Assembly (NCBI GenBank): GCA_947166925.1
Contig: CAMVGD010000001.1
Span: 41,574-105,573, forward strand
Origin: an uncultured Clostridia bacterium
GTDB taxonomy: Bacteria; Bacillota; Clostridia; Christensenellales; CAG-138
Direction: 5' to 3'
DNA length: 64,000 nucleotides
Shown here piece by piece: positions 29,145 to 59,000 of the stretch. The notes under the pieces were generated by a model. That model saw nothing but the letters and a program-made list of their open reading frames with translations, ran no database searches and was not told the DNA's origin. Every line of letters starts with the position of its first letter. Positions within the stretch are counted from its first letter, which is position 1. Made by a program: the position numbers and the translations under genes.

Positions 29145-29438
29145 ATGACCATTGAAAAGATCGAAGAAAACGGTGTCGTTACGCTGAAGCTCGCGGGCTG
29201 GCTCGACACGCAGGCCGCAGCACTGTTTGAGGAGCAGATCGAAGCGCTGGACCCCGGCACGCCGTCGCTTGTTCTCGACCTTGCAGCGCTGGAGTACACG
29301 TCCTCGGCCGGACTCCGGCAGATCGTCGCCGCCCACAAAAAGGTGGACGGACGCCTGACGCTGAAGAACGTACAGCCGGAGATCATGGATGTGCTCGAAA
29401 TGGCAGGATTCTTAAAGCGCCTGCACGTTGAATCATGA
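29145..29438 (+). CDS. STAS-domain protein (anti-sigma-factor-antagonist type, SpoIIAA/RsbV-like)
   Basis: 97 aa with LDLAALEYTSSAGLRQIV (a conserved phosphorylatable Ser context). It starts 1 nt after the PPTase stop. Confidence 0.85.
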   Translation: MTIEKIEENGVVTLKLAGWLDTQAAALFEEQIEALDPGTPSLVLDLAALEYTSSAGLRQIVAAHKKVDGRLTLKNVQPEIMDVLEMAGFLKRLHVES

Positions 29439-31384
29439 AGCGTTCGATCGGAAAACAGATCGTTCTGCTTTTTTCGATCACGCTGATCCTGACCATCCTT
29501 GCGTCGGCGGCGCTCGGTTTCAGCAGTGCGTATTCGGCCGAGCTGGAGCAAAACCGGACCGTCGGACGCAGCGCAGCTTATATCACCTCGGATATTCTGA
29601 ATACGATCGGTCTGGATCTGATCATGGATCCGCAAAACGACCTGGCGTACGATATGGCCAGAATGCAGCTCCGGACGGTCTGCCAAAGCCTGTCGCTGAC
29701 GTATCTGTATGTCTATACCGTAGATGCGGACGAGGTGCGGCATTATGTCGTGACCGTCGCTTCCGACGATGTGCTCGACGAGACTGTGCGCGAAGGGCTC
29801 GGGCTCGGCGCCGTCAGCCGGGAGCCGCTGCATGAGCAGGAGCGCGTCGCGCTTGCCGGCGGGGAGAGCGACAGCCGCTTTCTTCTGAACAATCGGTTCG
29901 GCAGAACGTCCGTATGGACCACGCCTTACTTTTCTCCGAGCGGAAAGCTTGCCGCGCTGATCGGCGCGGACGTCAGCGTCGAGGTCAGCAACGATGCGAT
30001 CATGAAGCAGTTTCTTGTGCGCGTTCTGCCCGTGTCCGCGTTTCTGATCGCGGCGTTTCTCTTTTTGTATTTCCTGCTGCATCGCCGTCTGATCCGGCCT
30101 TTGCACACCGTCGCGGCGCGCATGGAACAGTTCGATCCGTCGACGGAAAACGAGCCGCTTTCGATCCGTTCGCAGGATGAGATCCAGCAGATCGCCGATG
30201 CGTTCGAAAAGATGTCCGGCGATATCCGCAGGTATATCCGCAATATCGAAACGATCACCGCGCAGCGGCAGTATGAACGCGCGCAGCTTGACGTTGCCCG
30301 GCGCATCCAGTACGGAATGGTTCCGGCGTCGTTCCATGACTGCAGGGACGGCGTGGACGTCTCCGGGCTGATGCGCCCCGCAAAGGAGGTCGGCGGCGAC
30401 TTCTACGATTGCTTCCTGCGCCCCGACGGGCAATACTGCGCGTTGATCGCAGACGTCTCCGGCAAGGGCGTTGCAGGCGCGCTGTTCATGGCGCTGACCA
30501 AGAATCTTGTGCGGGAGCGGATCATGCACTGCGAGGATCCGGCGGAGGCGCTGAACAGCGTCAACGACGACCTTTGCGCGCAAAACCCCGAGGGCATGTT
30601 CGTTACGCTCTTTGCAATGCTCATCGACCCGCAGACCGGGGCGGTCCGCTGCGCCAACGCGGGACATAACCCGCCCGTGCTGCTGAAGCGCGGCGCGGCT
30701 GCGTATATGAAGCCGAAGCCCGGCATCGCGCTCGGGCTTTTCCCGGACGCGGACATCGAAACGGAGACCTTGACGCTCGCGCCCGGTGAAGGTGTGCTGC
30801 TGTATACCGACGGCGTGACCGAGGCGGTCAGTACGGAAAAAACATTTTACGGCACGGAACGGCTCCTGAAGCTTACGGAGACGCTCGGCAGAACGGACAG
30901 CCGCGCGGCCGTAACGGCGGTCGAGGAATCGGTCGACGCGTTCTTTGCCGGCTGCGAGCAGTTCGACGACATCACGGTCGTTGCGGCATATTATACGGGA
31001 GCGGACGAGCGGACGGCGCTGGCGCTTACGCTCGACGCGTTCGAGCCGGTCAAGCAAAAAATCCTTTCCGAATGCGAGGGGAGCGCGAACGCGAAAAAGA
31101 TCGTGCTCGCCTGTGAAGAAGCCTTCGTCAACATCGTGCGATACGCAAACGCGACCGAGGCCGATTACCGCGTCATGCGCGAAGGCGAACTGCTGACCGT
31201 GGAGCTTCGGGACAACGGCACGCGCTTCGACCCGTTCTCGGAAACATTGAAGGATGACGACGAGTTCTTAAGCATGGACGAGGGCGGACTCGGCATCCGT
31301 TTTATCCGGGATCTCACAGCGAACGCCGGATGGAGCTACGTTGACGGCAGAAACGTTTTGACGCTGGTTTTCAGAATCCGATAA
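29435..31384 (+). CDS. Membrane sensor-HAMP-PP2C (SpoIIE-type) phosphatase fused to a C-terminal RsbW/SpoIIAB-like ATPase/kinase domain
   Basis: ATGA overlap with the STAS gene. Two TM segments flank an extracytoplasmic region of about 165 aa. PP2C core AKEVGGDFYDCF...ADVSGKGVAGALFM...NAGHNPP...LYTDGVTEA. C-terminal EEAFVNIVRYA, RDNGTRFDP and EGGLGIRFI (N, G1 and G2 boxes). Confidence 0.85.
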   Translation: MKRSIGKQIVLLFSITLILTILASAALGFSSAYSAELEQNRTVGRSAAYITSDILNTIGLDLIMDPQNDLAYDMARMQLRTVCQSLSLTYLYVYTVDADEVRHYVVTVASDDVLDETVREGLGLGAVSREPLHEQERVALAGGESDSRFLLNNRFGRTSVWTTPYFSPSGKLAALIGADVSVEVSNDAIMKQFLVRVLPVSAFLIAAFLFLYFLLHRRLIRPLHTVAARMEQFDPSTENEPLSIRSQDEIQQIADAFEKMSGDIRRYIRNIETITAQRQYERAQLDVARRIQYGMVPASFHDCRDGVDVSGLMRPAKEVGGDFYDCFLRPDGQYCALIADVSGKGVAGALFMALTKNLVRERIMHCEDPAEALNSVNDDLCAQNPEGMFVTLFAMLIDPQTGAVRCANAGHNPPVLLKRGAAAYMKPKPGIALGLFPDADIETETLTLAPGEGVLLYTDGVTEAVSTEKTFYGTERLLKLTETLGRTDSRAAVTAVEESVDAFFAGCEQFDDITVVAAYYTGADERTALALTLDAFEPVKQKILSECEGSANAKKIVLACEEAFVNIVRYANATEADYRVMREGELLTVELRDNGTRFDPFSETLKDDDEFLSMDEGGLGIRFIRDLTANAGWSYVDGRNVLTLVFRIR

Positions 31385-40419: not shown

Positions 40420-40479
40420 GATCCCGTAAATCGTACGGAACTTTCCGAAATACAGCAAAGACAAGGATCAGGAGGCATT

Positions 40480-41445: not shown

Positions 41446-41480
41446 CGGACGCGGGTACGATCCGAGAGGTGTTTACCGTT

Positions 41481-41900: not shown

Positions 41901-41920
41901 GCGGTCCGACCGAAGCATAT

Positions 41921-41960
41921 CCGGCGCCGCGCGTTTTGCGGCGCCGGTATCCGGGTTTTC
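41921..41960 (+). terminator. Possible terminator (GC hairpin with a weak T tract)
   Basis: ccggcgccg (41921-41929) pairs with cggcgccgg (41939-41947), followed by tatccgggttttc. Confidence 0.4.
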
Positions 41961-42015
41961 ACGGACCGGAACGAATCATCAGATAACCCATAGCGGGAGA
42001 AAAAGGAGCAAAGCA

Positions 42016-42312
42016 ATGACGATTCAAAAAACCCAAAATGAAAAGGCGCTGACGATCGCCCTTGAAGGGCGGCTGGATACCTTGACCGCGCCGGAGCTGG
42101 AGGCGGTGCTGAACGACGCGCTTGCGGACGCGGAGGAGCTGACCTTCGATTTTGAGAAGCTCGATTACATCTCCTCGGCAGGTCTTCGCGTGCTGCTTGC
42201 GGCGCAGAAGACGATGAACCGGCAGGGGACCATGAAGGTGATCCATACGAACGAAATGATCCGGGAGATCTTCGAGGTCACCGGTTTTTCGGACATTCTG
42301 ACCGTCGAATGA
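42016..42312 (+). CDS. STAS-domain protein (second copy)
   Basis: 98 aa with FDFEKLDYISSAGLRVLL. Same length class and motif as 29145-29438. Confidence 0.85.
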   Translation: MTIQKTQNEKALTIALEGRLDTLTAPELEAVLNDALADAEELTFDFEKLDYISSAGLRVLLAAQKTMNRQGTMKVIHTNEMIREIFEVTGFSDILTVE

Positions 42313-42343
42313 CCGTTGCCCGGAAAAGGATAAAAAGTATTCC

Positions 42344-44380
42344 ATGAAGTGGCTGCGTCAACACATTACCGTCAAGAGCATAGCCGGCATCGTGCTGCTG
42401 CTGGTGCTGTTTTCCGTGGTCGTCGGCATCATCGGCTATCGGACCTTTACCGACGCGCTGCTGAATCAGTACGCAGAGGGCGCTTTTCTGACGGCGCAGA
42501 CGGCTGCTGAGCTCGTTGACGCCGATCAAATAGACGAATACGCCCAAAGCGGCGGCGTTACCCCTGCATACACGGAGGTCTGGGATCGGCTGGACCGTTT
42601 GTGCAACACCTCCGGGTCCACCTTCATCTATGTGATCGTGCCCGACCGGTCGGATTATCGGCATATCACCTTTCTCTTTTCCACCATCGACCACGACAGT
42701 TCATATACAAAGTACGAGTTCGGCTTCGTGCGGGACACCACCAACGACGAGTACCGCGAGAAATATCGCGCGCTCTACGAGCTGGAAGCGGACCGGGAAC
42801 TGGTGATCCGGGACAAGGGCAACATCGAGACCGATTCGCACATCACCGCCATGATCGGGCTTCCGGGGTCCGACGGCAGCGTGAAGGGGATCCTCTGCGT
42901 GCAGCGGCAGATGGACATCCTCGCCGGCGTACGCAGCACCTTCCTCAACAAGATCGCGCTTGCCGTCGTGACGCTGGTGCTGCTCGTGATCCTGGGACAG
43001 AGCTTATACCTGCATCGGGTGCTGCTGCATCCCGTCAACCTGATCACGGAGGAGGCGGCGCGGTTCTCCCGGGAGAATACGGCGTCCGTGCAGAAGCTGC
43101 AGAACGCCATCCGCAACAAGGACGAGATCGGGCAGCTGGCAAAGTCCATCGACACGATGGAGGAACAGATCGAGACCTACATCTCGGATATCACGCAGAT
43201 CACCGCCGAGCGGGAACGCATCAGCACGGAGCTGTCTCTCGCGACCCGCATTCAGGCGGCGTTCATCCCGCATCTGTTCCCGCCTTTCCCCGACCGACCG
43301 GAGTTCGCGCTTTACGCGTCCATGGATCCCGCCAAGGAAGTGGGCGGCGATTTCTTCGATTTCTTCCTGATCGACGAGGACCATCTGGGACTGGTCATCG
43401 CCGACGTGTCCGGAAAGGGCGTGCCGGCGGCGCTGTTCATGATGGCCTCCAAGATCATCCTGCAGAGCTGCGCCATGCTGGGGCACGGCCCGGCGGCGAC
43501 CCTGACCAAGACCAACGAGGCGATCTGCTCCAACAACCAGGAACAGATGTTCGTCACCGTATGGCTGGGGATCTTAGAGATCTCCACCGGCAGGCTCACT
43601 GCGGCAAACGCGGGGCACGAATACCCGGTGATCAAGGAGCCGGACGGCGACTTTGCCCTGCTGAAGGATAAGCACGGTCTTGTGATCGGCGGCATGAGCG
43701 GCGTCCGGTATCGGGAGTATGAGGTACAGCTGACGCCGGGAGCAAAGATCTTCGTCTATACGGACGGCGTGCCCGAAGCGAGCAACGCGGAAAACGAGCT
43801 CTTCGGTTCCGAACGCATGGTCGCCGCGCTGAACGACGCCAAGGACGAAGCGCCGGAGGCGATCCTGCGCAGCGTGCGCCGGGCGGTGGACGGCTTTGTG
43901 CAGGAGGCGGAGCAGTTCGACGACCTCACCATGCTCTGTCTTGAATATAAGGGTCCAAAGGCGGCGGCGCCCGTGAAGGAGCTGACCGTGGAAGCCACGG
44001 TCGAAAACATCTCCGCTGTGGCCGGGTTCGTCGAAGCGGAGCTGGACGCGGTCGACTGCCCGCCGAAGGCCAAGATGCAGATCGGCGTGGCGATCGACGA
44101 GATCATGGCGAACATCGCCCAATACGCCTACGCGCCGGGGACCGGTCCAGTAACCGTTCGGTTCGGATACGAGCAGGCGTCAAAAACGGCGACCCTGACC
44201 TTCCTGGACAAGGGCATGCCCTATAACCCTCTGGAAAAGAAAGACCCGGACGTGACCCTTTCCGCAGAGGACAGACCGATCGGAGGGCTGGGCATCTTTC
44301 TGGTGAAGAAGACCATGGACAGCATGGACTATGCATACAAGTTCGGACAAAACGTCCTGACGATACAGAAAAAGCTATAA
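42344..44380 (+). CDS. Membrane sensor-HAMP-PP2C phosphatase fused to an RsbW-like ATPase/kinase domain (second copy)
   Basis: Same architecture as 29435-31384: AKEVGGDFFDFF...ADVSGKGVPAALFM...NAGHEYP...VYTDGVPEA. C-terminal IDEIMANIAQYA, LDKGMPYNP and IGGLGIFLV. Confidence 0.85.
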   Translation: MKWLRQHITVKSIAGIVLLLVLFSVVVGIIGYRTFTDALLNQYAEGAFLTAQTAAELVDADQIDEYAQSGGVTPAYTEVWDRLDRLCNTSGSTFIYVIVPDRSDYRHITFLFSTIDHDSSYTKYEFGFVRDTTNDEYREKYRALYELEADRELVIRDKGNIETDSHITAMIGLPGSDGSVKGILCVQRQMDILAGVRSTFLNKIALAVVTLVLLVILGQSLYLHRVLLHPVNLITEEAARFSRENTASVQKLQNAIRNKDEIGQLAKSIDTMEEQIETYISDITQITAERERISTELSLATRIQAAFIPHLFPPFPDRPEFALYASMDPAKEVGGDFFDFFLIDEDHLGLVIADVSGKGVPAALFMMASKIILQSCAMLGHGPAATLTKTNEAICSNNQEQMFVTVWLGILEISTGRLTAANAGHEYPVIKEPDGDFALLKDKHGLVIGGMSGVRYREYEVQLTPGAKIFVYTDGVPEASNAENELFGSERMVAALNDAKDEAPEAILRSVRRAVDGFVQEAEQFDDLTMLCLEYKGPKAAAPVKELTVEATVENISAVAGFVEAELDAVDCPPKAKMQIGVAIDEIMANIAQYAYAPGTGPVTVRFGYEQASKTATLTFLDKGMPYNPLEKKDPDVTLSAEDRPIGGLGIFLVKKTMDSMDYAYKFGQNVLTIQKKL

Positions 44381-44395
44381 AAGGAGATTCCGAAA

Positions 44396-45076
44396 ATGAA
44401 GAAATTACTGACTGTTTTACTGATCGCCCTGCTGATCCTCAGCGCTGCGGCCTGCACTAAGAAGAATGAATCCGACGCTCCGGCGTCTTCCTCGGTCGAT
44501 CCGACCCAGTGGAAGACTCTGGGCGACGTCTGGGAGTATGAATTCTGGGGCTCCGTCGTCGAGGAAGGCACGTATATCCGGGCCTTCAAAGCGGAAGACG
44601 GATACTACCGCGTGGAGGCGGACGTCACGGAGGACGTGACGGAGAAGCTGGACGCCATCGACTTTTTCGACAAGACAGGGGAGGAGCAGGAAAAAGCGCT
44701 GATGAAGGATCTGCCCATCAAAACGATCATCAACCTTTCCGAGGTCCTGCTTTCTCAGAGCGATCTCGACACATTGGCGGGCAAGACCGGTCAGGAGCTT
44801 TTGGATATGGGCTTCGTGCCGCAGGGCAGCAAGGGCTTCAGCACGCAGGAGCAGCTCTCCTGGGCAACTTTGGAGAAGGGACCGTTCGTATATGAGGTTA
44901 CCTTCCAGGAATACGTGGACGTCGACGACGATCCCAACGTGGCGGCGGTCATCCGGCCGCTGACCGTGAAGAGCGTGACCTTTTCCGGCGTTTCCCAGTA
45001 CGCGACGGAAAAAGCGTTCGATATCAACGGCGGCAAATCGCTGGCGGACTATGAAGCAATGTTCAACGGGGACTGA
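44396..45076 (+). CDS. Hypothetical lipoprotein
   Basis: Signal peptide with lipobox LSAAACTK. It starts 15 nt after the previous gene, with a GGAG RBS. Confidence 0.65.
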   Translation: MKKLLTVLLIALLILSAAACTKKNESDAPASSSVDPTQWKTLGDVWEYEFWGSVVEEGTYIRAFKAEDGYYRVEADVTEDVTEKLDAIDFFDKTGEEQEKALMKDLPIKTIINLSEVLLSQSDLDTLAGKTGQELLDMGFVPQGSKGFSTQEQLSWATLEKGPFVYEVTFQEYVDVDDDPNVAAVIRPLTVKSVTFSGVSQYATEKAFDINGGKSLADYEAMFNGD

Positions 45077-45134
45077 TCCAAAATCTTAAACCATACCGTC
45101 GGCAGTGCGCTGCGGGCGGGGGACGGAAAGCGAC

Positions 45135-47042
45135 ATGAAGATAACGAAAGCGAAAAGAACAGGACTGCTGATCCTTGCCGCCGTGCTGGCGGTCTGCTGG
45201 ATCGGCTGCAATCGGGGGAGCCGGCAGGAGACGGCTGCGTCAGCCACTTCTTCCGCGTCTCCGACCGTTCCGGAACAGTCCCCGTCGGCAAAGGCGGAAC
45301 CGACCTCCGTTCCGGAACCTGCCGTCACGGCGGAACCGGCGGGACCGGATTACGGCGATCCCGGCTCGTGGGCGTACTTTGCCGAGGGCGAGGACAAGGA
45401 CGCGGACGTGTTCCTCATCTGCCCGTTGGTGGACACCCGGAGCGAGCGGAATGCTTACGATCTCAACGACAAGCTCAAGGAACGATTTGTCAACGCTCTG
45501 GATATGGAGAAAGGTATCTACGAGGATGTGGGGAGGCTCTATTCCCCCTTCTACCGGCAGATGTCCATGAACGCTTATCGGCTGCCCGAGCCCGAACGCG
45601 AAATGACCAGGGCGGTGGCATATGCCGATATTTCCGCCGCATTCCGCTGGTATCTCGATCATGAGAACAACGGCAGACCGCTGATCCTTGCCGGCTTTTC
45701 CCAGGGCGCCGAGATGTGTCTCGAGCTTATGAAGGAGTTCTTCGGGGATACGCCGGAGGGCGGCGCTTTGCGGGAGCGGCTGATCACCGTTTACGCCATC
45801 GGTTGGCGTGTGACGGAGGAGGATACCCGCGCCTATCCGCAGATCGTGCCCGCGCAGGGAGAAAAGGATCTCGGCACGGTGGTGAGCTTCGACTGCGAGG
45901 ACGGTTCTCTTCAGGAGACCATCATCATTCCGGCAGGCGTCAGGACCCTGTCCGTCAATCCGCTGAACTGGAGGACGGACGGCACCCCGGCGGATTGCTC
46001 TTTGAATCTCGGCGCGGTCATGAGCACGGGCGCGGAGCCCGTTCCCGGTCTGTGCGGCGCATACATCGGCGACCGGGGAGAGCTCGTGGTGACGGACGTG
46101 GAGGCGGGGGACTATCCTCCGGGACTGGATCTGTTCCCGACAGGCGCATACCACGTCTATGATTATCTGTTCTTCTTTACAAACCTGAAACAGAACATCG
46201 CCGATCGCGCAGCCGCCTATTTCGAGGCGCAGCGCGGCGCATGTCTGGGACAGCTTTTGCAGGACCTTTTGACGGCACGCGAAACGCCGAACGCCGATGA
46301 CGCGCAAAGGATCGATGCGGATCTTGCCGCGGTCAAAGCGGCCGCCGAGGCGGATTATCCCGTGGCAAAGGCGATCGCGGATCACTGGCGGCAGGTGTAC
46401 CTCGATCCGGCGTATACCCTATGCTGCCACGGCGAAGGAAAGCTGGCGCCGGAGCTTGACGGCGCAGGCATTCCCGACGAACGCACGCACGCGTTCGTGG
46501 TCCTGGGCTATGAGCTTCAGAACGGGGAGATGACGGACGAGCTCAGGGGACGCTGCGAAGCGGCGGCCGCGGCAGCCAGATCCTTCCCGAATACGATCCT
46601 CGTCTGCTCCGGCGGCGCGACCGGACCCAACAATCCGGACGGGCATACCGAAGCAGGGCTTATGAAGCAGTATCTTACGGAGGTATGCGGCATCGACGCC
46701 GACCGGATCTTTACGGACGAGCGGGCGTTGACCACGGCGGAGAACGCCGTCAACACCTTCGCCATTCTGAAGGAGCAGGGGGTCGAGACCATGACCATCG
46801 TGACCTCCTCCTACCATCAGCGGTGGGGGCAGGCTTTGTACAACGCACTGGCGGCGATCTATGAGCAGCAGTACGGCTACCATGCCCGGCTGATCGGCAA
46901 CTATTGCTTCGACACCGAGCCTTCCGTGGACGCCTTTTTGCACGACGACTGGTTCGCCGTCTATCAGCTGGGAGAGATCCTGAACCTCCCCGGCGAGCAG
47001 ATGAACCGGTTCCGCGACGTATACGCCCTTCTCGGACAGTGA
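45135..47042 (+). CDS. Secreted or lipoprotein fusion of a DUF3089 (alpha/beta-hydrolase-like) domain and a DUF218/YdcF-like domain
   Basis: ATG 45135 (MKITKAKRTGLLILAAVLAVCWIGC). DUF3089-like WAYFAEGEDKDADVFLICPLVD...YSPFYRQ...GFSQGAEM. C-terminal VVLGYEL...VCSGGATGP...TEAGLMKQYL...TTAENA...IVTSSYHQRW. Confidence 0.65.
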   Translation: MKITKAKRTGLLILAAVLAVCWIGCNRGSRQETAASATSSASPTVPEQSPSAKAEPTSVPEPAVTAEPAGPDYGDPGSWAYFAEGEDKDADVFLICPLVDTRSERNAYDLNDKLKERFVNALDMEKGIYEDVGRLYSPFYRQMSMNAYRLPEPEREMTRAVAYADISAAFRWYLDHENNGRPLILAGFSQGAEMCLELMKEFFGDTPEGGALRERLITVYAIGWRVTEEDTRAYPQIVPAQGEKDLGTVVSFDCEDGSLQETIIIPAGVRTLSVNPLNWRTDGTPADCSLNLGAVMSTGAEPVPGLCGAYIGDRGELVVTDVEAGDYPPGLDLFPTGAYHVYDYLFFFTNLKQNIADRAAAYFEAQRGACLGQLLQDLLTARETPNADDAQRIDADLAAVKAAAEADYPVAKAIADHWRQVYLDPAYTLCCHGEGKLAPELDGAGIPDERTHAFVVLGYELQNGEMTDELRGRCEAAAAAARSFPNTILVCSGGATGPNNPDGHTEAGLMKQYLTEVCGIDADRIFTDERALTTAENAVNTFAILKEQGVETMTIVTSSYHQRWGQALYNALAAIYEQQYGYHARLIGNYCFDTEPSVDAFLHDDWFAVYQLGEILNLPGEQMNRFRDVYALLGQ

Positions 47043-47105: not shown

Positions 47106-48326
47106 ATGGCAGAAGAAAAACGATTCACCAAAGCCACATGGCAGATCATGGAGCAGCTTTTGGAGGTGGACAGCCTCGACGACGCGCTCTCCGGCAGTCT
47201 GGAAATCATTGTCAAGACGCTGAACAGCGAAGCAGGAGCGATCTGGCTTCTGGATACCAAGACGGATCGGCTGACCCCGATGTTCCACATCGGTCCGGCG
47301 GACATTTCCAACATCACGGTGGAAAACGGGCTCGGCATCGAGGGTGTCGTCACCAAGACCGGCAAGTCCGTGATCGTGGAGGATGCAGTGAACGATTCGC
47401 GCTTCGAGGGCTCCGTGTTCGACGACAACGGGCTCGTCACCAAGACGATGATCTGCGTGCCGCTGAATAACCTCCACGACGTGATCGGCTGCGTGCAGAT
47501 CGTCAACAAGAAGGACGGCAGTCTGTACGACGCCGAGGAGCTGAAGCTGTGCGAGCGGATGGCGTCGCTGGCCGCGATCACGATCGACGAAAAGGGACTG
47601 ATCGTCGATCTCGGCGAGCAGAAAGAGATCCTGGCGACGCTTCGGAACGTCACGAAGGAGTTCCCCTCCGGCGACGGCGTGCTGCGCGTTTTAAAGGGGA
47701 TCAATCTCGACATCTACAAGAACGAGTTCGTCGTCGTTCTCGGCGAATCCGGCTGCGGCAAGTCCACCATGATGAACATCGTCGGCGGCATGGACTTTCT
47801 GACCGACGGCACGCTAACGGTCGAGGGGAAGGATTTTTCGCATCCGTCCGACGCCGAGCTGACGAAGTACCGCCGCGAGTATATCGGCTTCATCTTCCAG
47901 TCCTATAACCTGATGCCGAACCTCACCGCGCTCGAAAACGTGCAGTTTATCGCGGAGCTTGTGAAGGATCCCATGGACGCGGCGGACGCGATCGCGAAGG
48001 TCGGACTTTCCGAACGCGCCAACAACTATCCCGGTCAGATGTCCGGCGGTCAGCAGCAGCGCGTGTCCATTGCGCGCGCGATCGTGAAAAAGCCGAAGCT
48101 GATCCTTGCCGACGAGCCGACGGCGGCGCTCGACTATACGACGAGCATCGAGGTACTGTCTGTCGTGGAGGATATCGTGCGCAAGCAGGGCGCGACAGTC
48201 ATGATGGTCACGCACAACCCCGAGATCGCCAAGATGGCGGACCGCGTGGTCAAGGTGCGCAACGGCAAGATCGCAAGCATCAAAAAGAATCTGCATCCCG
48301 TTCACGCGGAAGAACTGGTTTGGTGA
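47106..48326 (+). CDS. GAF-domain-fused MacB/LolD-type ABC transporter ATP-binding protein
   Basis: AAGGAG RBS. The N-terminal ~165 aa are GAF-like (AGAIWLLDTKTDRL...GIEGVVTKTGKSVIVEDA...MICVPLNNLHDVIGCVQIVNK). Then GESGCGKST, MSGGQQQRV and ILADEPT. Confidence 0.85.
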   Translation: MAEEKRFTKATWQIMEQLLEVDSLDDALSGSLEIIVKTLNSEAGAIWLLDTKTDRLTPMFHIGPADISNITVENGLGIEGVVTKTGKSVIVEDAVNDSRFEGSVFDDNGLVTKTMICVPLNNLHDVIGCVQIVNKKDGSLYDAEELKLCERMASLAAITIDEKGLIVDLGEQKEILATLRNVTKEFPSGDGVLRVLKGINLDIYKNEFVVVLGESGCGKSTMMNIVGGMDFLTDGTLTVEGKDFSHPSDAELTKYRREYIGFIFQSYNLMPNLTALENVQFIAELVKDPMDAADAIAKVGLSERANNYPGQMSGGQQQRVSIARAIVKKPKLILADEPTAALDYTTSIEVLSVVEDIVRKQGATVMMVTHNPEIAKMADRVVKVRNGKIASIKKNLHPVHAEELVW

Positions 48327-48332: not shown

Positions 48333-50987
48333 TTGAAAAAAACGCAGCTGAAAGACGCATTACGCAATATATGGAAGCAGAAGGTCTCCTTTCTGTCGAT
48401 CATTGTGATCGCGCTTTTGGGCGTGACCACCTTTTTGGGTATCGGATATTCGGCGGCGGCATTGCGGAAGAACGCATCGACGGCATATAACCGGCAGAAC
48501 TACCGCGATATCGAAGTCATCTCCACGCGCCTATTAACGTCGGAGGACCTGGACTGCATCCGCGCGCTTGACGGTGTGAAGGACGTTGAGCCGGTCTGGC
48601 AGACCGCCGCGAACGCTTACATCGGCAGCGAAAAGCAGGTCATCAACATCATCACCGCAACGGAGCGGATCAATCTCGTATCGATGATCGAGGGGCGCAT
48701 GCCGAAAGACGCTTCGGAATGCGCGATCGAACAAAGCGTCGCAGAGGAAGCCGGGTGGAAGGTCGGCGACGAGATCGAATGGGCGGAAATGACCGACGTT
48801 ACCGGACAGTTTTTTCTCGGCGCGGATCCGTTTACGATCGTCGGTGTCGTTGCGCATCCCGATCACGCAAGCAAAACCGTGCCGGAGACGCCCTATATGA
48901 TCGTCAGCCCGGATCGGTTCGATCGGATAGCCATGGAAAACTGCTGCATGAAGGCGGAGATCGTCGTTGAGAAGGCGGCGGACGTCAACCGGTTTACCAA
49001 GGCATACGATGAGACCGCAGCGACGGTTTTGCAAAAGATCGAGGAGATCTCCGCGGAACGGATCGCGATCCGCGACGCACAGCTCAAAGAACAGGCGCTG
49101 CAGCTGATCGAGCAGGCGGAAACGGCGCTTGCGGAAAACAGAGAGCAGCTGACGACGGGAACCCAGGCAAGGGATACCCTGCTCGGCATAATCGTGCAGG
49201 CGGAGCAGATCGCAGGCGGCATAGACGGAATGAACGCCGCCGTCGCTTCTCTGCGGGAGTTCAGGCAGAAGATCGAAGCAGAGACGTCCGAGCTGAACGA
49301 CGCCGAAGCGATGCTTGCGCAGACGGAAGCGATGATCAAAGAATTGCGCGATCAGCTGGACAACATGGAACCCGGCCGCTGGTTCATCTTTGACGGGCAC
49401 GGCAACGCAAGCTTTGTACAGCTGATCATCGGCAGCGGAAACCTCGAGAGCCTCGAAATGACCTTCTCTCTGCTGTTCGTTCTGGTCGGCGCGCTCGTGA
49501 TCTACGCCACGATCAGCAAGATGATCGACGAGCAGCGCACGCTGGTCGGGACCACCAAGGCGCTCGGCTTCTTCAATCGGGAGATCTTTGCAAAGTACCT
49601 GCTGTTCGGACTGTCCGCAACGGTGCTCGGCACGCTGTTCGGCGTCCTGCTTGCGCGGTTCGTCCTTGAACCGTTCATTCTGAAAGGGTACGGCGCGTAC
49701 TACACCTATGATACCACGGCGCCGACGGTGACGGTCGGACCGACGCTGATCGTGCTGCTTGCGGGGATCGTCCTTGCCGTCGGCGCGATCACGTTCGCCT
49801 GCTACCGGCTGATGCGCACGCCTGCGATCCGGCTGATGCAGCAGGCGGTCCCCAAGGGCAAAAAGGGAAGCGCAAAAGGCGGAAAGCGGCTTCTGTCGCT
49901 GTATTCGCGCCTGATCCTTCTGAACATCCGCACCGACCTTCGGCGCGTGATCGTGACGATCGTAAGCGCGGCGGGCTGCTGCGCGCTGATCGTGATCGGC
50001 TTTACACTGAAGGCAGCGGTGAACGGCGCGGTCAAAAACCAGTATTCTTCCGTCGTGCATTACGACGCGAAGGTGCAGTATGCATACGGCGAGGAGATCG
50101 AAGCGGAGCTTAAAAAGTCCGGCGCGGAATGCGTGCCGCTGTACGACGTATTCATCACCTATCGGATTAAGGACAATCAGGTGGGAGAGCTGCTCTGCGG
50201 CGATATTGAAGCCATCGAATCCATGTACCGCCTGAACGACTGGCGCACCAAGGACCCGATCGAACCGACCGACGAGGGCATTCTGATCCAGCGGCGTCTG
50301 GCGGAGATCGATAAGCTGGACGTCGGAAGCGAGTTTCAGATCACTGTAGGTGGCGCGAAAACGGCGAAGGTCCGTGTGGCGGGCATCTTTGAAAACTACA
50401 TCGGTCGCTCCATGGTGATGAGCAGCGGGTATTACGCGTCGCTGTTTGGCCAGGAACCGACGCCCAATTCCTACCTGATCCGCCTGAACGACGCGGACGA
50501 GGAGGCGCTGCGTACGCGGCTCAAAATGACTTCGGGCTTTACGAGCTACACGCCGGCGTCGTCGGACCGGGCCATGTTCGACTCCGCGACCTCGGTCGTC
50601 AACAGCATCGTCGTGCTGTTCATCGTCCTGGCGGCGATCATGGCGGGCGTGGTGCTGACCAATCTGACGAACATCTATGTCATGCAGAAGAAGCGCGAGC
50701 TCGTTGTCATGCGCATCAACGGCTTTACGGTCAAAGAGGTCATCGGATACTGCACGCGGGAAACGATCCTGACGACGATCGCGGGCATCGTTCTGGGCAT
50801 CGCGCTCGGCTCCGGGATCGCCTATCGCATCGTGCGTGCGATGGAACAGGCGTTCATCCGGTTCGACCGCAGCGTCAGCCCGATCGCATGGCTGTACGGC
50901 GCGCTGATTACGGTGCTGTTCACGATCATCATCAATGTGATCGTTCTTCGGAAAGTTAAACACCTGAAGCTGACGGACGCCGCCTGA
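48333..50987 (+). CDS. FtsX-family ABC permease, double-module (884 aa)
   Basis: The TTG start is supported by N-terminal colinearity with the paralog (MKKTQLKDALRNIWKQKVSF). It has TM bundles at both ends and a large extracytoplasmic domain with a short coiled-coil segment. Confidence 0.85.
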   Translation: MKKTQLKDALRNIWKQKVSFLSIIVIALLGVTTFLGIGYSAAALRKNASTAYNRQNYRDIEVISTRLLTSEDLDCIRALDGVKDVEPVWQTAANAYIGSEKQVINIITATERINLVSMIEGRMPKDASECAIEQSVAEEAGWKVGDEIEWAEMTDVTGQFFLGADPFTIVGVVAHPDHASKTVPETPYMIVSPDRFDRIAMENCCMKAEIVVEKAADVNRFTKAYDETAATVLQKIEEISAERIAIRDAQLKEQALQLIEQAETALAENREQLTTGTQARDTLLGIIVQAEQIAGGIDGMNAAVASLREFRQKIEAETSELNDAEAMLAQTEAMIKELRDQLDNMEPGRWFIFDGHGNASFVQLIIGSGNLESLEMTFSLLFVLVGALVIYATISKMIDEQRTLVGTTKALGFFNREIFAKYLLFGLSATVLGTLFGVLLARFVLEPFILKGYGAYYTYDTTAPTVTVGPTLIVLLAGIVLAVGAITFACYRLMRTPAIRLMQQAVPKGKKGSAKGGKRLLSLYSRLILLNIRTDLRRVIVTIVSAAGCCALIVIGFTLKAAVNGAVKNQYSSVVHYDAKVQYAYGEEIEAELKKSGAECVPLYDVFITYRIKDNQVGELLCGDIEAIESMYRLNDWRTKDPIEPTDEGILIQRRLAEIDKLDVGSEFQITVGGAKTAKVRVAGIFENYIGRSMVMSSGYYASLFGQEPTPNSYLIRLNDADEEALRTRLKMTSGFTSYTPASSDRAMFDSATSVVNSIVVLFIVLAAIMAGVVLTNLTNIYVMQKKRELVVMRINGFTVKEVIGYCTRETILTTIAGIVLGIALGSGIAYRIVRAMEQAFIRFDRSVSPIAWLYGALITVLFTIIINVIVLRKVKHLKLTDAA

Positions 50988-51022: not shown

Positions 51023-54000
51023 ATGAAGCAAACACAGATCAAAGATGCTTTGCGGAACATCCGAAAACTGCAGATCTCATTCTGGTCGATCGTCGTGATC
51101 GCCGCGCTCGGCGTGACGATCTTTCTCGGCGTCGACTACGCTGCGGCTGCGCTCCGAAAAAACGCCACCGTCTATTATCGGGATGCGGGATTCCGCGATG
51201 TTGAGATCATTTCCACCATGCTGCTTTCCGGAGAGGATATGGACGTCATCCGAAACACGGAGGGCGTGACGGACGTCGAGGGCGTTTATATGACCTCCGC
51301 CAAGGTGACGTCGAACGACATCCGTAAGGACGCGTATGTGATCTCCTTGACGGAACGGATCAACATTCCGTCCGTATATGAAGGGCGTCTGCCGGAAAAG
51401 GACGGCGAATGCGCCGTCGAACAGCGGCTGATGAACCAGATGGGGTGGAAGGTCGGCGATACGATCGCGGTCACGAGCGCCGAAGGCGCGACGCCGCAGT
51501 ACCTGAAAGCCGATTCGTTTGTCATCTGCGGCGCGATCCTGCATCCGGATCACGCCTGCAACAGCATCCCCGAAACGCGTTACATTATCGTGACGCCCGG
51601 GGCGTTCGATGCGGAAGCGCTGGACGGCTGTTATATGAAGGCGGAGATCATGGCGGACCGCCCGATCGACATGAACCGTTACGAAGCCGAATACCGGAAG
51701 GCGACGGTTGTCGTGCGCGAACGGATGGAAGCGGCAGCCGGAACCTATGCGCCGCTTCGCGAGGCGTCGGTCAAGGCGCAGCTCGACGAGAACCGCCAGA
51801 AGCTCGACGACGCCGAAGCGGAGCTCGGGAACGGCCGTGCGGAGCTCGACGACGGCTGGAAGCAGCTTGCGGAGGGCGAACAACAATACGAAGACGGCGT
51901 AAAGCAGGCGGAGGACGCGCGGGCGCAGCTGGACGAGGCAAAGCAGAAGCTCGACGACGCCGAACAGCAGCTTCGGGACGGACGTGCGGAGCTGGACGCC
52001 GCAAAGGCGGAGCTTGAGGCGGGCAAGGCACAGCTTGATTCGGCGAAAAAGCAGCTTGATTCGGCAAACCGACAGCTCGTTTCCGGCTGGAACACGATCG
52101 AGGACGTCAAGACGCAGATCCGGAACAAGCTGCATGCCGGGCTTGACGACGTCATCGGCGAAGATTCCTCGCAATGGATCCACTGGGCGGATCCGCTGGA
52201 GGCGAACCCGAACAGCTCGGGCGTTTCCGCGAGCGATTTCCGGATCACGGATCAGTTGACGGTCAATTTCGGCGCATCGCTGTCCGGCAAGATCAATCAG
52301 CTTATGAACACGGTGCAGATCCCGGACCGCGTGCTGCGCAAAGCGTTTGAAAAGCTCGGCGGCGAGGGCGAATACGATCCCGAAGTCGCGCGCAAGCTCC
52401 TTGCCGACCGCATTGCGTCGCTTGCGGGCGAGTATCAGTCGCAGTACGACGCGCTCGCCGACGGATGCACCAAGTGGGACAACGGGCACGAGACCTATCT
52501 TTCGGGACTTCGGCAGTACCGCGACGGACTTGCAAAATACGAGAGTGCGCTTAAGCTGTATCAGGAGGGCGAGGCGCAGTACGCCGAGGGACTTGCGCAA
52601 TATGAGGACGGACTTCGGCAGTACAACGACGGGGAAGCGCAGTATGCGCAGGGGCTCATCGACCTTGAAACCGGCCGTAAGGAGCTCGACGACGCCCGCG
52701 CAAAGCTCGAGGACGGCGAACGGCAATACGCGGACGGACTCACACGGTACAACGACGGAAGGGAAGCGCTTGAGAAGGCGCAGAAACGCATCGACGGGCT
52801 CGGTCCGTGCAAGTGGATCGTGACCGACTGCTTCGGGAACGTCGGTTTCGTGCAGGCCGGGACTGCCGCCGACAACCTGAAAAGCATGGAGATGACCTTT
52901 GCGCTCCTGTTCATTCTGGTAGGCGCGCTCGTCATCTATGCGACCGTCAGCAAGATGGTCGACGAACAGCGCAGGCAGATCGGGACAACGAAAGCGCTCG
53001 GCTTCTTCAACGGCGAGATTTTCACAAAGTATCTATTGTTCGGGATCTCGGCGACGCTGCTCGGCTGCGTGATCGGTCTGCTGATCGCACGGTTCGGGAT
53101 CCAGAGATTCATCACGAACGGCTATAATCTCTATTTCGATTACAATCTTAAGAAACCCGCAATGGTCGCGCTTCCGACGGTGATCGTGTTCTTCGCAGGC
53201 GTTTTACTGGCGTTCTTTTCCATCTGGTTTGCCTGCGTGAAGCTGCTGCGCACACCGGCGATCAGACTGATGCAGCAGTCGGTTCCGAAGGGCAGGAACA
53301 AGGCGGCGTCCGGCAGAAAACCCACGCTGTCGCTGTATTCGCGCCTGATCCTTCTGAACATCCGGACGGATTTCCGCCGCGTGCTCGTCACCGTGATCAG
53401 CGTCGCGGGCTGCTGCGCGCTGGTTATCATCGGCGTTACGCTCCGGAACGCGGTCAGCAATTCGCTGGATCTGCAGCTCCATGAGGTCATCCGCTACGAC
53501 GGCATGGCGTCGATCGATCCGGAAGCGAACGCCGACGCGGCGGACAGCGCCGCGCAGATCCTTGCGGACACGGGCGCAAAGGGCTGTCCCGTTCAGAAAA
53601 AGAACGTCACCGTGCACATCAAGGATCTCGACATGCTGGAGCTGTACGTCGGAGATCTTGCGGAGATCGGCAAAATGATCCTGCTCGCCGACGTTAAAAC
53701 CGGCGACCCGATCCCGCCGACCGACGAAGGCATTCTGGTTTCGAGACGGTTTTCCGAAAACTATCAGGTCAGCGTCGGCGATCCGATCGAGATTTCCTTG
53801 AACGGTACGGAGACCGTGCAGACAACCGTCGCAGGCATCTTCAATGTTTACGTCGGCAGAACGATGTATATGAGCGACAATTGCTTCCGGAAGCTGTTCG
53901 GACGCGATCCGGAAACGAACGCGTTTCTGATCCGGCTCGACGGCGCGAAGCTCGATCCGCTGCTTGATCGGCTCAGTACAGTCGAGGGGTATGAGAGCTA

Positions 54001-54439
54001 CGAGCGCTCCGATTCCTTCAAATCGCTGTTTGAAACGGCGACCAGCGTTATGAACATGGTCGTGCTGCTGTTCATCTTCATGGCGGCGGTCATGGCGGGC
54101 GTCGTGCTGATGAACCTGACCAACATCTATATCATGCAGAAGCTGCCGGAGCTGACGATCATGCGCATCAACGGCTTTACGGTCCGGGAGACCATCGGCT
54201 ATGTCCTGCGCGAAACGGTCGTCACGACTGCGGCGGGCATTCTGCTCGGCGTCGGGCTCGGCACGGTCATCGGCTACAAGATCGTATGCTCGCTGGAGCA
54301 GAGCTTCGTGCAGTTCGACCGCCGTCCGTCCGTCGTCGCGTGGATCGTCGGCGCATTGATGACGATCGCATTCACGGTCATCGTCAACGCGATCGCGCTG
54401 AAGAAGGTCAAGAAGCTGAAGCTGACGGACGCCGCCTGA
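51023..54439 (+). CDS. FtsX-family ABC permease, double-module with a coiled-coil insertion of about 300 aa (1138 aa)
   Basis: MKQTQIKDALRNIRKLQISF. Long repeats such as QLDEAKQKLDDAEQQLRDGRAELDAAKAELEAGKAQLDSAKKQLDSA and YRDGLAKYESALKLYQEGEAQYAEGLAQYEDGLRQYNDGEAQYAQG. Confidence 0.85.
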   Translation: MKQTQIKDALRNIRKLQISFWSIVVIAALGVTIFLGVDYAAAALRKNATVYYRDAGFRDVEIISTMLLSGEDMDVIRNTEGVTDVEGVYMTSAKVTSNDIRKDAYVISLTERINIPSVYEGRLPEKDGECAVEQRLMNQMGWKVGDTIAVTSAEGATPQYLKADSFVICGAILHPDHACNSIPETRYIIVTPGAFDAEALDGCYMKAEIMADRPIDMNRYEAEYRKATVVVRERMEAAAGTYAPLREASVKAQLDENRQKLDDAEAELGNGRAELDDGWKQLAEGEQQYEDGVKQAEDARAQLDEAKQKLDDAEQQLRDGRAELDAAKAELEAGKAQLDSAKKQLDSANRQLVSGWNTIEDVKTQIRNKLHAGLDDVIGEDSSQWIHWADPLEANPNSSGVSASDFRITDQLTVNFGASLSGKINQLMNTVQIPDRVLRKAFEKLGGEGEYDPEVARKLLADRIASLAGEYQSQYDALADGCTKWDNGHETYLSGLRQYRDGLAKYESALKLYQEGEAQYAEGLAQYEDGLRQYNDGEAQYAQGLIDLETGRKELDDARAKLEDGERQYADGLTRYNDGREALEKAQKRIDGLGPCKWIVTDCFGNVGFVQAGTAADNLKSMEMTFALLFILVGALVIYATVSKMVDEQRRQIGTTKALGFFNGEIFTKYLLFGISATLLGCVIGLLIARFGIQRFITNGYNLYFDYNLKKPAMVALPTVIVFFAGVLLAFFSIWFACVKLLRTPAIRLMQQSVPKGRNKAASGRKPTLSLYSRLILLNIRTDFRRVLVTVISVAGCCALVIIGVTLRNAVSNSLDLQLHEVIRYDGMASIDPEANADAADSAAQILADTGAKGCPVQKKNVTVHIKDLDMLELYVGDLAEIGKMILLADVKTGDPIPPTDEGILVSRRFSENYQVSVGDPIEISLNGTETVQTTVAGIFNVYVGRTMYMSDNCFRKLFGRDPETNAFLIRLDGAKLDPLLDRLSTVEGYESYERSDSFKSLFETATSVMNMVVLLFIFMAAVMAGVVLMNLTNIYIMQKLPELTIMRINGFTVRETIGYVLRETVVTTAAGILLGVGLGTVIGYKIVCSLEQSFVQFDRRPSVVAWIVGALMTIAFTVIVNAIALKKVKKLKLTDAA

Positions 54440-57572: not shown

Positions 57573-59000
57573 TTATTTCACACCGAGATAGCGGATGCAC
57601 AGCATGGTGATGTCGTCGAACTGCTCGGCGCCGTTCGCGTGCACATCGATTGCCGCCTTGACGTCGGTGAGGATCTCTTCCGGCGTTTTGTCTGCGGAGG
57701 CTTCGAGACAATCGGCAAGCCGCTGTTCGCCGAACAGCTCATGCGCATTGTTTTCGGCTTCGGTGATGCCGTCGGTATAGAGGAACAGCCGGTCGCCCTT
57801 CTTGAGCGTCATGGTCTGTTCGCGGTAGGGAATGCCTTCCATACCGGCGAGCACGAAGCCGCCGCGGCGTTTGATGAACTCCGGCGTTCCGTCCGAGATC
57901 AGCACGGGCGGGTTGTGCCCCGCGCAGACAAACGTGAGCGCGCCGCTCGAAAGATCGAGCACGCCGATCCATGCGGTCACGAACATCTGCGCCGTGTTGT
58001 TGCTGCAAAGGCTGTCGTTCGCGACGGTGATCGCTTCGGAAAGCGTGGGATAATCGCGCACACAGTTCTGGATGGTGGTCTTGGAGGTCGCCATAAAGAG
58101 CGCTGCGGGGATGCCCTTGCCGGAAACGTCCGCGACGACGAAGGCGAGCCGATCCTTATCCACAAAGAATACGTCGTAAAAGTCGCCGCCGACCTCTTTT
58201 GCGGCGTCCATAGAAGCGGCGACCCCGATCTCCGGTCTGCCGGGATAGGTTTCCGTAATGGGCGGCAGCAGCGAATGCTGAATGACGGTCGCGACTTCAA
58301 GCTCCGTCTTGAGGCGCGAGCGCTCGAGCGTGATCTCCCGCTGACGTTCGATATAATTGATCATGGTGATCATCAGCGTAAAGCCGACGGCGTTGACAAG
58401 GATGAAGGGCAGGGCGATCGCCTTGACGATGTCGAGCCCCGCATGGGGATTCTCGGGCGTCCGGACGATGAGAAAAACGAGCGAAAGATGAAAGATCTCC
58501 ATTAAGACGCCGGTCAGCAGCGCCCACCAGGGCTTTTTCAGCTTTTGATTGAATTTCCGTGCAAATATGCCGCACATGGTACCGATGCAGACCGTCGCAA
58601 TGATGCAGGCATAGGTAACGAGCATCGTGGCGGAATCCCATGTGCCGGGATCGGTGATCTGGTATCCCTTACCGGTATGGAGAAAGACGTAAAAGAATCG
58701 GTGCGCCCCGGCAATCACACCCGCGATCAGACCGCCGAGCGGTCCGCCGGTGAAGCCTGCAAGCATCGGTCCGACGTCTCGGACGGAAATGACCGCGCCG
58801 TTGAGCTGCAGACCGGACATGGTTCCGTAGATGCCGAATACGCCGCCCAAAAGACCGGCGAACAGCGAATACTTCCAGTTCGATTTCGAACCGGAAAATT
58901 TCATCATCAACTCGCTGCCGCCGATAAACGCGGCGATCACGAGGATCACGGCGAGCGTGCCGATCATGTTGGTGAAAAAAGCCGTCAGATTTCCGTCCAT
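57573..59000 (-). CDS. 5TM-LytS-type (5TMR-LYT-like) membrane sensor fused to a PP2C (SpoIIE-type) phosphatase
   Basis: N-terminal Gly-rich TM bundle (LFAGLLGGVFGIYG...GPMLAGFTGGPLGGLIAGVIAGAHRF), then AKEVGGDFYDVF...ADVSGKGIPAALFM...CAGHNPP...LYTDGITEA. There is no kinase domain. Confidence 0.85.
   Translation of the reverse strand: MDGNLTAFFTNMIGTLAVILVIAAFIGGSELMMKFSGSKSNWKYSLFAGLLGGVFGIYGTMSGLQLNGAVISVRDVGPMLAGFTGGPLGGLIAGVIAGAHRFFYVFLHTGKGYQITDPGTWDSATMLVTYACIIATVCIGTMCGIFARKFNQKLKKPWWALLTGVLMEIFHLSLVFLIVRTPENPHAGLDIVKAIALPFILVNAVGFTLMITMINYIERQREITLERSRLKTELEVATVIQHSLLPPITETYPGRPEIGVAASMDAAKEVGGDFYDVFFVDKDRLAFVVADVSGKGIPAALFMATSKTTIQNCVRDYPTLSEAITVANDSLCSNNTAQMFVTAWIGVLDLSSGALTFVCAGHNPPVLISDGTPEFIKRRGGFVLAGMEGIPYREQTMTLKKGDRLFLYTDGITEAENNAHELFGEQRLADCLEASADKTPEEILTDVKAAIDVHANGAEQFDDITMLCIRYLGVK

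Follow-up and report, generated by a model that had tools for sequence, protein, structure and literature searches.

Partner-switching systems of Bacillus, RsbU/RsbV/RsbW and SpoIIE/SpoIIAA/SpoIIAB, have a separate kinase that serves as the anti-sigma factor of a co-encoded sigma factor. Other arrangements are known. HsbR (Pseudomonas aeruginosa) and CrsR (Shewanella oneidensis) are REC-PP2C-kinase proteins with kinase domains that bind RpoS, the product of a gene at another locus (PMC6482189), and a STAS domain that regulates a non-sigma enzyme was recently shown in Anabaena (PMC13555669). In the Mla system, the STAS protein MlaB binds the ATP-binding cassette (ABC) ATPase MlaF with Thr52, the equivalent of the phospho-site, at the interface, and the T52E substitution weakens binding; phosphoregulation of MlaFB was proposed but is unproven, an open question in the structure paper (PMC7367683). 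Here we describe a STAS gene and a membrane-sensor gene, STAS2 and sensor2 (together pair 2), at the head of a gene string that ends in a MacB-type ABC transporter. They lie in a 64-kb stretch of DNA from an uncultured Clostridia bacterium (contig CAMVGD010000001.1, positions 41,574 to 105,573), referred to in full as the window, which also holds a paralogous pair, STAS1 and sensor1 (pair 1). Our reading, put forward tentatively and with a little less than even confidence, is that sensor2 may set the phosphorylation of STAS2 and that STAS2 may in turn modulate the downstream transporter.

The open reading frame (ORF) list placed a 98-amino-acid (aa) STAS protein at 42016-42312 and, 31 nucleotides (nt) later, a 678-aa protein at 42344-44380, as given in the preliminary description of this DNA. 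The same genes were called independently on an identical public contig (ENA ERZ14209545 NODE_132, 125.6 kb). STAS2 (42016..42312, + strand) is a single-domain STAS protein of the anti-sigma-antagonist type (Pfam STAS, 1.2e-14), and matched the NCBIfam model ant_ant_sig (TIGR00377) at 2.8e-20 and 72 bits, above the 53.45-bit cut-off. Its predicted phospho-acceptor is Ser54, the second S of DYISSAGL (codon 42175-42177), which aligned to the phosphorylated Ser of RsbV (6m36_B) and SpoIIAA (1th8_B). The ISS[AS]GLR core, including the acceptor serine, was kept by every transporter-linked STAS2 orthologue.

The partner of STAS2, sensor2 (42344..44380, + strand), is a membrane sensor and phosphatase-kinase fusion, as judged from Pfam, hydropathy, an AlphaFold2 (AF2) model and the identical protein on the public contig. 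Its domains run in the order transmembrane helix (TM), single-Cache ectodomain, TM, HAMP/signalling helix, PP2C (SpoIIE) phosphatase and RsbW-type kinase. The proposal that a single membrane sensor unites the two opposing activities, kinase and phosphatase, is supported, as is the proposal that the STAS protein is the sole soluble component of the pair; one ORF carries both catalytic domains. The PP2C domain of the SpoIIE family (43304..43948, +; Pfam SpoIIE 1.4e-50, residues 344-535) has PDB relatives 6k4e, 3ke6 and 3es2. Its metal-binding residues Asp336, Asp354, Asp474 and Asp526/527 were invariant in an alignment of 53 homologues that included both paralogue families. The RsbW/SpoIIAB-type serine kinase domain (HATPase_c_2; 43976..44374, +; Pfam 8.6e-22, residues 550-676) contains the N (E586, N590), G1 (D622-x-G624) and G2 (G647-G648-x-G650) boxes. 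These boxes were invariant or nearly so overall in the same alignment, with E586, N590, G624, G647, G648 and G650 strictly invariant, and the domain aligned with RsbW (6m36_A) motif by motif. The C-terminal domains thus do not lack ATP-binding residues, a lack that would, by the preliminary description, have refuted its proposal. Judged by its domains and catalytic residues, pair 2 is an intact phospho-module of the partner-switching type, and phosphorylation and dephosphorylation of the STAS protein by sensor2's own kinase and PP2C are predicted.

The input end of sensor2 was assigned largely from hydropathy and structural models. TM1 (42359-42454, +; residues 6-37) and TM2 (42929-43030, +; residues 196-229) enclose an extracytoplasmic sensor domain (42455..42928, +; residues 38-195). 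An extracytoplasmic region between the two helices had been correctly proposed, although its length by hydropathy is about 158 aa rather than about 170. The full-length AF2 model, with a predicted local distance difference test score (pLDDT) of 82.9, showed a TM helix and an alpha/beta ectodomain, next a segment made up of TM, HAMP and a long helix, then the PP2C and, after a short linker, a GHKL domain. Modelled alone (pLDDT 89.9, predicted template-modelling score 0.87), the ectodomain had a PAS-like alpha/beta core preceded by a long helix at its N-terminus. Foldseek searches of the PDB matched it to Tlp3, the WalK ectodomain, the sCache formate sensor 8py0, CitA and DcuS (E 4.6e-5 to 2e-3, template-modelling score about 0.5), while no Pfam Cache family matched sensor2 at E <= 0.01. 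The modelled ectodomain is a single-Cache/PDC fold, an assignment made at fold level only; 28 of its positions were invariant across 43 homologues. Downstream of it, a HAMP-like linker (residues 223-272) and a long signalling helix (to about residue 307) occupy 43010..43264 (+), as indicated by Pfam and by model helices 191-244 and 261-307. The Pfam HAMP match (4.3e-4, 21 bits) fell below the cut-off of 25 bits; clearer HAMP matches were obtained for sensor1 and for one relative (L139). Of the domains expected for the pair, profiles confirmed STAS, SpoIIE and HATPase_c_2, with HAMP sub-threshold and Cache recognised by fold only. Neither a Response_reg nor a PAS domain was matched in sensor2, the N-terminus being TM-Cache-TM-HAMP.

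Pair 2 opens a same-strand string of genes that continues from STAS2 to a second FtsX gene, with successive gaps of 31, 15, 28, 63, 6 and 35 nt. Its transporter part begins with a GAF-ABC ATPase of the MacB/LolD/DevA/FtsE type (47106..48326, +; Pfam GAF_2 4.6e-13, ABC_tran 1e-33), the best NCBIfam matches of which were MacB, DevA and LolD ATPases. Two FtsX-family permeases follow. The first, of 884 aa (48333..50987, +; Pfam FtsX 4.5e-26, in two stretches), is syntenic in L001-5, L014, L093 and L094-L173, where L-numbers are labels for the loci of relatives compared with the window. The second, of 1138 aa (51023..54439, +; Pfam FtsX 3.6e-27), includes a coiled-coil region, as seen from coiled-coil-type matches, and its orthologue in L139 showed an additional weak MacB_PCD match. 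No Mla-type partner, whether MlaE permease or MlaD MCE protein, was found: the permeases belong to the FtsX family and the ATPase to the MacB/LolD/DevA type.

Evidence that STAS2 is linked to this transporter came from the gene order of relatives, in which genes were predicted with a composition-filtered caller checked on the window. In sensor2 relatives at 78-90% identity (L001-5, L014), the order STAS-sensor(-kinase)-[variable genes]-GAF-ABC-FtsX-FtsX was kept, and the non-ribosomal peptide synthetase (NRPS) that lies upstream in the window was absent. A reciprocal survey starting from the GAF-ABC ATPase was made on metagenome contigs dereplicated at 96%, counting only clusters with at least 1.5 kb of upstream sequence. 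Within the GAF-ABC clade at least 82% identical to the window, a STAS2-type gene occurred no more than 5 kb upstream in 12 of 27 clusters, and anywhere in the locus in 17 of 27. Below 82% identity, such a gene was found in 2 of 16 clusters by either measure. The arrangement itself varied. The order STAS-fused sensor-GAF-ABC occurred in the window, L014 and L098-100, and STAS-kinase-GAF-ABC in L143. In L139, Pfam identified overlapping genes in the order STAS-kinase (143 aa)-HAMP-PP2C (540 aa)-GAF-ABC-FtsX. STAS stood directly 5' of GAF-ABC, at a gap of 31-83 nt and with no kinase or PP2C within 6 kb upstream, in L101-106, L110, L120 and L145, and directly 3' of the FtsX genes in L119, L128, L146 and L147. 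The near-isogenic loci L095-97 share 92-93% of nucleotides with the window in their flanks. In these, the sensor2 ORF was cleanly deleted with its first ~47 nt left, and STAS2 and the downstream genes were intact (deletion site around 6926-7283 in L095-L097, matching window 42056-42390 and 44377 onward). The association of STAS and transporter survives at least four arrangements, including loci without a sensor gene. Among the targets that had been considered for STAS2, the transporter is, from this survey, the best supported.

Other features of these loci were also recorded. The N-terminal GAF domain (47106-47630) was kept in all 80 relatives surveyed, whether or not STAS was adjacent. In L095-97, an amino-acid ABC importer is inserted upstream and the NRPS block is absent. 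Two genes between sensor2 and the transporter are variable members of the string: a predicted lipoprotein of 226 aa starting 15 nt after sensor2 (44396..45076, +; lipoprotein-like N-terminus), which had no match in Pfam or NCBIfam and has homologues in L003-5 and L095-97, and a DUF3089/DUF218 protein of 645 aa (45105..47042, +; Pfam 3.2e-42 and 2.4e-18), present in L003-5 and L095-97 and absent from L014 and L001. At the other end of the string, a GC-rich hairpin (41921..41947, +), identified by RNA folding, lies directly 3' of the DUF3574 gene. The fold of 41901-41970 had an energy of -39.6 kcal/mol (z = -3.65 relative to shuffles), and a clean T-run was absent. The hairpin is a plausible transcript boundary with a putative terminator function, in which case STAS2 would begin a new transcription unit. 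Promoter and terminator consensus scans of 38500-57600 returned sites no more numerous than in shuffled sequence.

On these observations, a signalling route may be proposed. A ligand would bind the single-Cache ectodomain of sensor2 as an extracellular input, and the signal would travel via TM2, HAMP and the signalling helix to the PP2C. The C-terminal RsbW-type kinase would phosphorylate Ser54 of STAS2, and the PP2C would take the phosphate off; with both activities in sensor2, the sensor alone would set the ratio of phosphorylated to unphosphorylated STAS2. One of these phospho-states would then bind the GAF-ABC ATPase of the transporter (47106-54439) and alter its activity or assembly, as MlaB does with MlaF. 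The signal flow, the phosphotransfer and, above all, the transporter as output are what we infer from the genes.

Several observations weigh against the transporter as the target. The connection to STAS2 is one of synteny only and is confined to a single GAF-ABC clade (>=82% identity); sensor2 orthologues at 58-68% identity (L006-L008) lack it and have other genes downstream, and some GAF-ABC relatives have no STAS nearby. Because the link is limited to one clade and is missing at 58-68% identity, shared ancestry explains part of it. The likeness to MlaB would, in addition, be functional only, since the transporter is of the MacB/FtsX and not the Mla type. Some of these points would fit a different explanation, in which STAS2 acts on a protein that is neither a sigma factor, an anti-sigma factor nor a neighbour, and its synteny with the transporter is inherited gene order and nothing else. 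The pair SypE/SypA provides a precedent, as a fused kinase/phosphatase with a STAS partner whose target is still unknown (PMC8256260). The restriction of the STAS-transporter link to one clade, and the unrelated housekeeping genes that neighbour the sensor2 orthologues at 58-68% identity, are as this explanation expects. Passive synteny, however, predicts otherwise than what was seen in the closer relatives, where STAS and transporter genes stayed adjacent despite several independent rearrangements, and even where the sensor had been lost; transporters are, moreover, a recurrent theme around the whole sensor family. We consider such an unlinked target, with passively inherited synteny, improbable. 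In a single lineage only, STAS was also found fused to an AMP-binding (adenylate-forming) enzyme of 619 aa, directly after the GAF-ABC/FtsX genes (L093 8958-10814, L128 6173-8029).

A second explanation is that the sensor2 kinase sequesters a sigma factor encoded elsewhere, as in CrsR and HsbR, and that dephosphorylated STAS2 displaces it. The output would then be transcription, with the transporter perhaps in the regulon. A further point against our reading is that fused kinases of this class can act as anti-sigma factors of a sigma factor from another locus (PMC6482189). The PP2C-then-RsbW-like order and the adjacent STAS gene match HsbR and CrsR, in which the kinase domain binds RpoS from a distant locus (PMC6482189). 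In line with this explanation, the score of STAS2 exceeds the cut-off set for the NCBIfam superfamily of anti-sigma antagonists, and the sensor2 kinase domain is alignable with RsbW. In a tblastn census, the STAS domains of the window numbered exactly two, the PP2C domains three and the RsbW-like domains two, and there was one extracytoplasmic function (ECF) sigma factor, in agreement with the three SpoIIE-type phosphatases and two STAS proteins previously counted there. The ECF sigma gene (22531-23157) is 19 kb from pair 2 and is followed by an RsgI_M/PepSY anti-sigma gene, which bears out the earlier statement that the only sigma factor of the window already has its own PepSY partner. Ten other mid-size ORFs of the window were examined, and none was a sigma factor.

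The neighbourhoods of the wider family were surveyed with Pfam on 280 genes lying no more than 5 kb from the sensor gene in 42 species-level loci with a kinase-bearing sensor, a survey for which the preliminary description had called. The recurrent families were STAS (32), APH (10, as STAS-APH fusions), MatE (10), ABC_tran (9) and HATPase_c_2 (6), and none of the 25 families listed per set (each with at least two members) was a Sigma70 family. No sigma family thus recurs around these sensors, and transport, rather than a sigma factor, is the recurrent genomic theme. The description of pair 2 as lacking a cognate sigma factor holds in that no sigma gene accompanies the pair, either within the window or as a recurrent neighbour in relatives; local absence does not by itself show that a cognate sigma factor is lacking, given that CrsR and HsbR bind a distant RpoS (PMC6482189). 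STAS2-type genes that persist beside the transporter with no kinase or PP2C nearby are left unexplained by a role of the kinase as anti-sigma factor. To our knowledge, membrane tethering is unusual for RsbW-type anti-sigma factors, which also counts against sequestration of a distant sigma factor. Overall, we regard that explanation as unlikely.

ABC exporters likewise recur beside the sensor family, and MatE proteins fused to a C-terminal HATPase_c_2 domain adjoin STAS genes in about 14 loci. A wider proposal would be that partner switching in these rumen Clostridia has come to serve membrane transport in place of sigma factors. In this view, a kinase/phosphatase with a Cache sensor would set the phospho-state of a switchable STAS protein, and this protein would gate a MacB-type ABC transporter directly, by way of the GAF-ATPase; in relatives, the corresponding targets would be MATE exporters with a built-in RsbW-like docking domain. 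This generalisation seems to us rather doubtful, more so than the role proposed for pair 2 itself.

The MATE-HATPase_c_2 proteins are 583-590 aa long (L003 5797-7548, L007 7172-8944, L077 11192-12958 and, by tblastn, about 13 further loci) and usually adjoin a STAS gene and a sensor of the same family; in this architecture, the exporter is physically joined to a STAS-binding/kinase domain. The MatE gene of the window itself (26682-28253, minus strand) has no HATPase_c_2 domain. STAS-APH-type phosphotransferase fusions of about 390 aa were found in about 20 loci (for example L007 242-1417, L018 1260-2840 and L153 6714-7895) and not in the window, some with an extra C-terminal HATPase_c_2 domain (about 526 aa). 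A further family of about 200 aa, with the N-terminus MKTDVI, occurs between the STAS gene and the sensor or GAF-ABC gene (L003 9041-9655; L007 9330-9929; L001 7334-7945, 8289-8882 and 8912-9433; L114 8905-9597) and had no Pfam or NCBIfam match. The hhalign comparison of its N-terminus with the kinase N-box helix gave a weak match (probability 8.8%, with the Asn replaced). The family may be a degenerate RsbW-like protein, and we do not claim it as a pseudo-kinase.

A third explanation is suggested by the position of pair 2, 3.3 kb downstream of a C-A-T-C-A-T-R NRPS. Pair 2 would, like pair 1, control the synthesis or export of a dipeptide-aldehyde/pyrazinone-type product, and its Cache domain might sense that product. 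Pair 1 (29145..31384, +; STAS1 29145-29438, sensor1 29435-31384) was identified by Pfam as a paralogue of pair 2. The same domain order had been noted for the two pairs, with which Pfam agrees, and pairwise alignment supports their paralogy (sensors 29% identical, E 4e-66; STAS proteins 35% identical). Pair 1 sits between a phosphopantetheinyl transferase (PPTase) gene and the NRPS (window 29145-38669), and the tightness of this linkage was seen again in relatives. The order MatE-PPTase-STAS-sensor-NRPS was found in L009 (89% identity), STAS-sensor-NRPS was kept in a different genomic context in L010/L011 (71% identity), and PPTase-STAS-sensor was left, with the NRPS absent, in L012/13 (50% identity). 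Across the window, L009, L010 and L011, pair 1 stays with the NRPS in three different genomic contexts, and a partner-switching module of this kind looks built into this type of NRPS cluster.

For pair 2, NRPS genes do recur near related modules, which is a point against the transporter reading. In L101 the order is NRPS-DUF3574-STAS-GAF-ABC; in L024 a sensor2-type ectodomain (67% identical) lies near A-T-C and A-T-R NRPS genes and a PPTase gene; and in L077 a sensor, a MatE-kinase and a STAS gene are followed by an NRPS. Most close relatives of pair 2 (L001-5, L014, L095-100), by contrast, have no NRPS within 7-10 kb, and the NRPS cluster already has its own pair between PPTase and NRPS. The NRPS block adjoins a transposase gene and is variably present, even among near-isogenic strains (window versus L095-97). 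The two pairs had been said to bracket the NRPS, an arrangement that is not conserved: pair 1 travels with the NRPS, and close relatives of pair 2 mostly lack it. The view that pair 2 is a fixed component of the NRPS cluster was rejected, since only pair 1 is one; an NRPS role was downgraded rather than dismissed in view of L024, L077 and L101. Regulation of the NRPS by pair 2 appears very unlikely, the least probable of the explanations weighed here. The DDE transposase gene (24851-26347) flanks the MatE-PPTase-pair 1-NRPS block, which fits the variable presence of that block in close relatives.

The preliminary description had contrasted the fusion of phosphatase and kinase with the separate proteins of the RsbU/V/W and SpoIIE/AA/AB systems. 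The fusion is not unusual. In a protein search with at least 8000 scored relatives, almost all of the top 120 carried PF07228 and PF13581, under the source names 'SpoIIE family protein phosphatase' or 'RsbU'. In species-representative genomes, the sensor family sits in metagenome-assembled genomes of rumen and gut Clostridia, the closest being Clostridia bacterium RGIG2736 from goat omasum (90%). Among 75 evaluable species-level loci, the fused form was the majority (39), with the kinase encoded as an adjacent ORF in 8 and no kinase in 28, and there are characterised precedents in HsbR, CrsR, SypE and Rv1364c. The linker of L001/L002 (78% identical) carries a 1-nt insertion that, together with a separate ATG, gives a 549-aa PP2C protein and an overlapping 135-aa kinase (junction at L001 11631-11650, matching window 43945-43990); the same protein was found on ten contigs. 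Comparison of these sequences indicates that fused and split forms interconvert at short evolutionary distance, and, as the kinase has a gene of its own in close relatives, the mechanism does not depend on fusion. Rarity of the fusion was therefore rejected, the fused form being the most frequent in the family and split in close relatives. Both the fusion and the 'orphan' status of pair 2 are ordinary. Presence of a kinase was associated with STAS: a STAS gene lay within 3 kb in 22 of 34 loci with a kinase in cis versus 5 of 21 without (Fisher p = 0.005).

The third PP2C protein of the window (57573..59000, minus strand) has the Pfam architecture 5TMR-LYT-SpoIIE, without a kinase. The sensor2 PP2C domain is 48% identical to it and 37% identical to that of sensor1, and the third PP2C could be a second phosphatase input to STAS2. 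Its gene adjoins a LytS-type histidine kinase and response regulator (55335-57523). This two-component system lies upstream of STAS2 in L001 and L095; in L095-97 it is thus on the other side from its place in the window.

Little is understood of how accessory proteins control bacterial ABC transporters after translation. If the wider proposal of re-targeting to transport is true, the transporter would be the first ABC transporter shown to be under the control of a STAS protein with a dedicated kinase and phosphatase. If the link of STAS2 to the transporter is true, partner switching would gain an output independent of transcription, and there would be a way into the question of how export responds to extracellular cues in the abundant, uncultured Clostridia of the rumen. 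If that link is false, pair 2 merely adds to a domain architecture that is very common and already has a name. The locus is a natural test case, in which one gene string encodes a STAS protein with its own kinase and phosphatase, an extracellular sensor domain and a candidate transporter, and with natural variants (fused, split and sensor-deleted) at hand.

Compared with the described systems, pair 2 shares with RsbU/RsbV/RsbW and SpoIIE/SpoIIAA/SpoIIAB the three domain families and the position of the phospho-serine, whereas its kinase shares a polypeptide with the phosphatase, though not in some relatives with a split form, and is not co-encoded with a sigma factor. By its predicted domain content, pair 2 is a partner-switching module of the fused PP2C-kinase class, carrying three of the four defining features; the classical fourth, a kinase that is the anti-sigma factor of a sigma factor in the same operon, is not seen at this locus. 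The pairs HsbR-HsbA and CrsR-CrsA resemble pair 2 in that one polypeptide has a PP2C ahead of an RsbW-type kinase/anti-sigma domain, that a single-domain STAS protein, phosphorylated on a conserved Ser in those systems, is encoded next to it, and that the operon lacks a sigma factor (PMC6482189). Their input is a cytoplasmic REC domain addressed by phosphorelay, whereas that of sensor2 is TM-Cache-TM-HAMP. Their outputs are known (RpoS, FlgM, HsbD), while for pair 2 the conserved neighbour is an ABC transporter. The likeness is one of domains only. Rv1364c of Mycobacterium tuberculosis (PDB 3ke6) also fuses a PP2C to an RsbW-like kinase and matches sensor2 across both domains (residues 320-600, E 1.8e-10). 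The full Rv1364c protein is cytoplasmic and also has a PAS domain at the N-terminus and a STAS domain of its own at the C-terminus.

SypE has its domains in the order kinase-REC-PP2C. It is soluble and encoded in a polysaccharide locus, whereas sensor2 is membrane-bound. Like pair 2, SypE-SypA (Vibrio fischeri) joins a dual serine kinase/phosphatase to a STAS protein, and the target of SypA is no known sigma system (PMC8256260, PMC10120452). SiaA/SiaB/SiaC of P. aeruginosa is comparable in that a membrane HAMP-PP2C phosphatase and a kinase act in opposite directions on a small switch protein, the output of which is not a sigma factor. The kinase SiaB and its substrate SiaC come from other families, and their output is a diguanylate cyclase. 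SiaA was the best PDB and NCBIfam match of the sensor2 HAMP-PP2C region (6k4e, 1.3e-13; NF038263, 73.3 bits, far below the cut-off of 700).

MlaB-MlaF of Escherichia coli is like pair 2 in that the gene of an ABC ATPase is accompanied by that of a small (~100-aa), single-domain STAS protein, which in Mla regulates the ATPase (PMC7367683). Mla, however, is an MCE/MlaE-type lipid transporter of Gram-negatives without a dedicated kinase or phosphatase, whereas the pair 2 transporter is of the MacB/FtsX type with a GAF-ATPase, in Clostridia, and its STAS protein is SpoIIAA-like with its own kinase and phosphatase. Literature searches returned no characterised Cache-HAMP-PP2C-HATPase_c_2 sensor and no STAS protein tied to an FtsX-type transporter. 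Set beside these systems, the persistent coupling of STAS and transporter genes is an undescribed variant.

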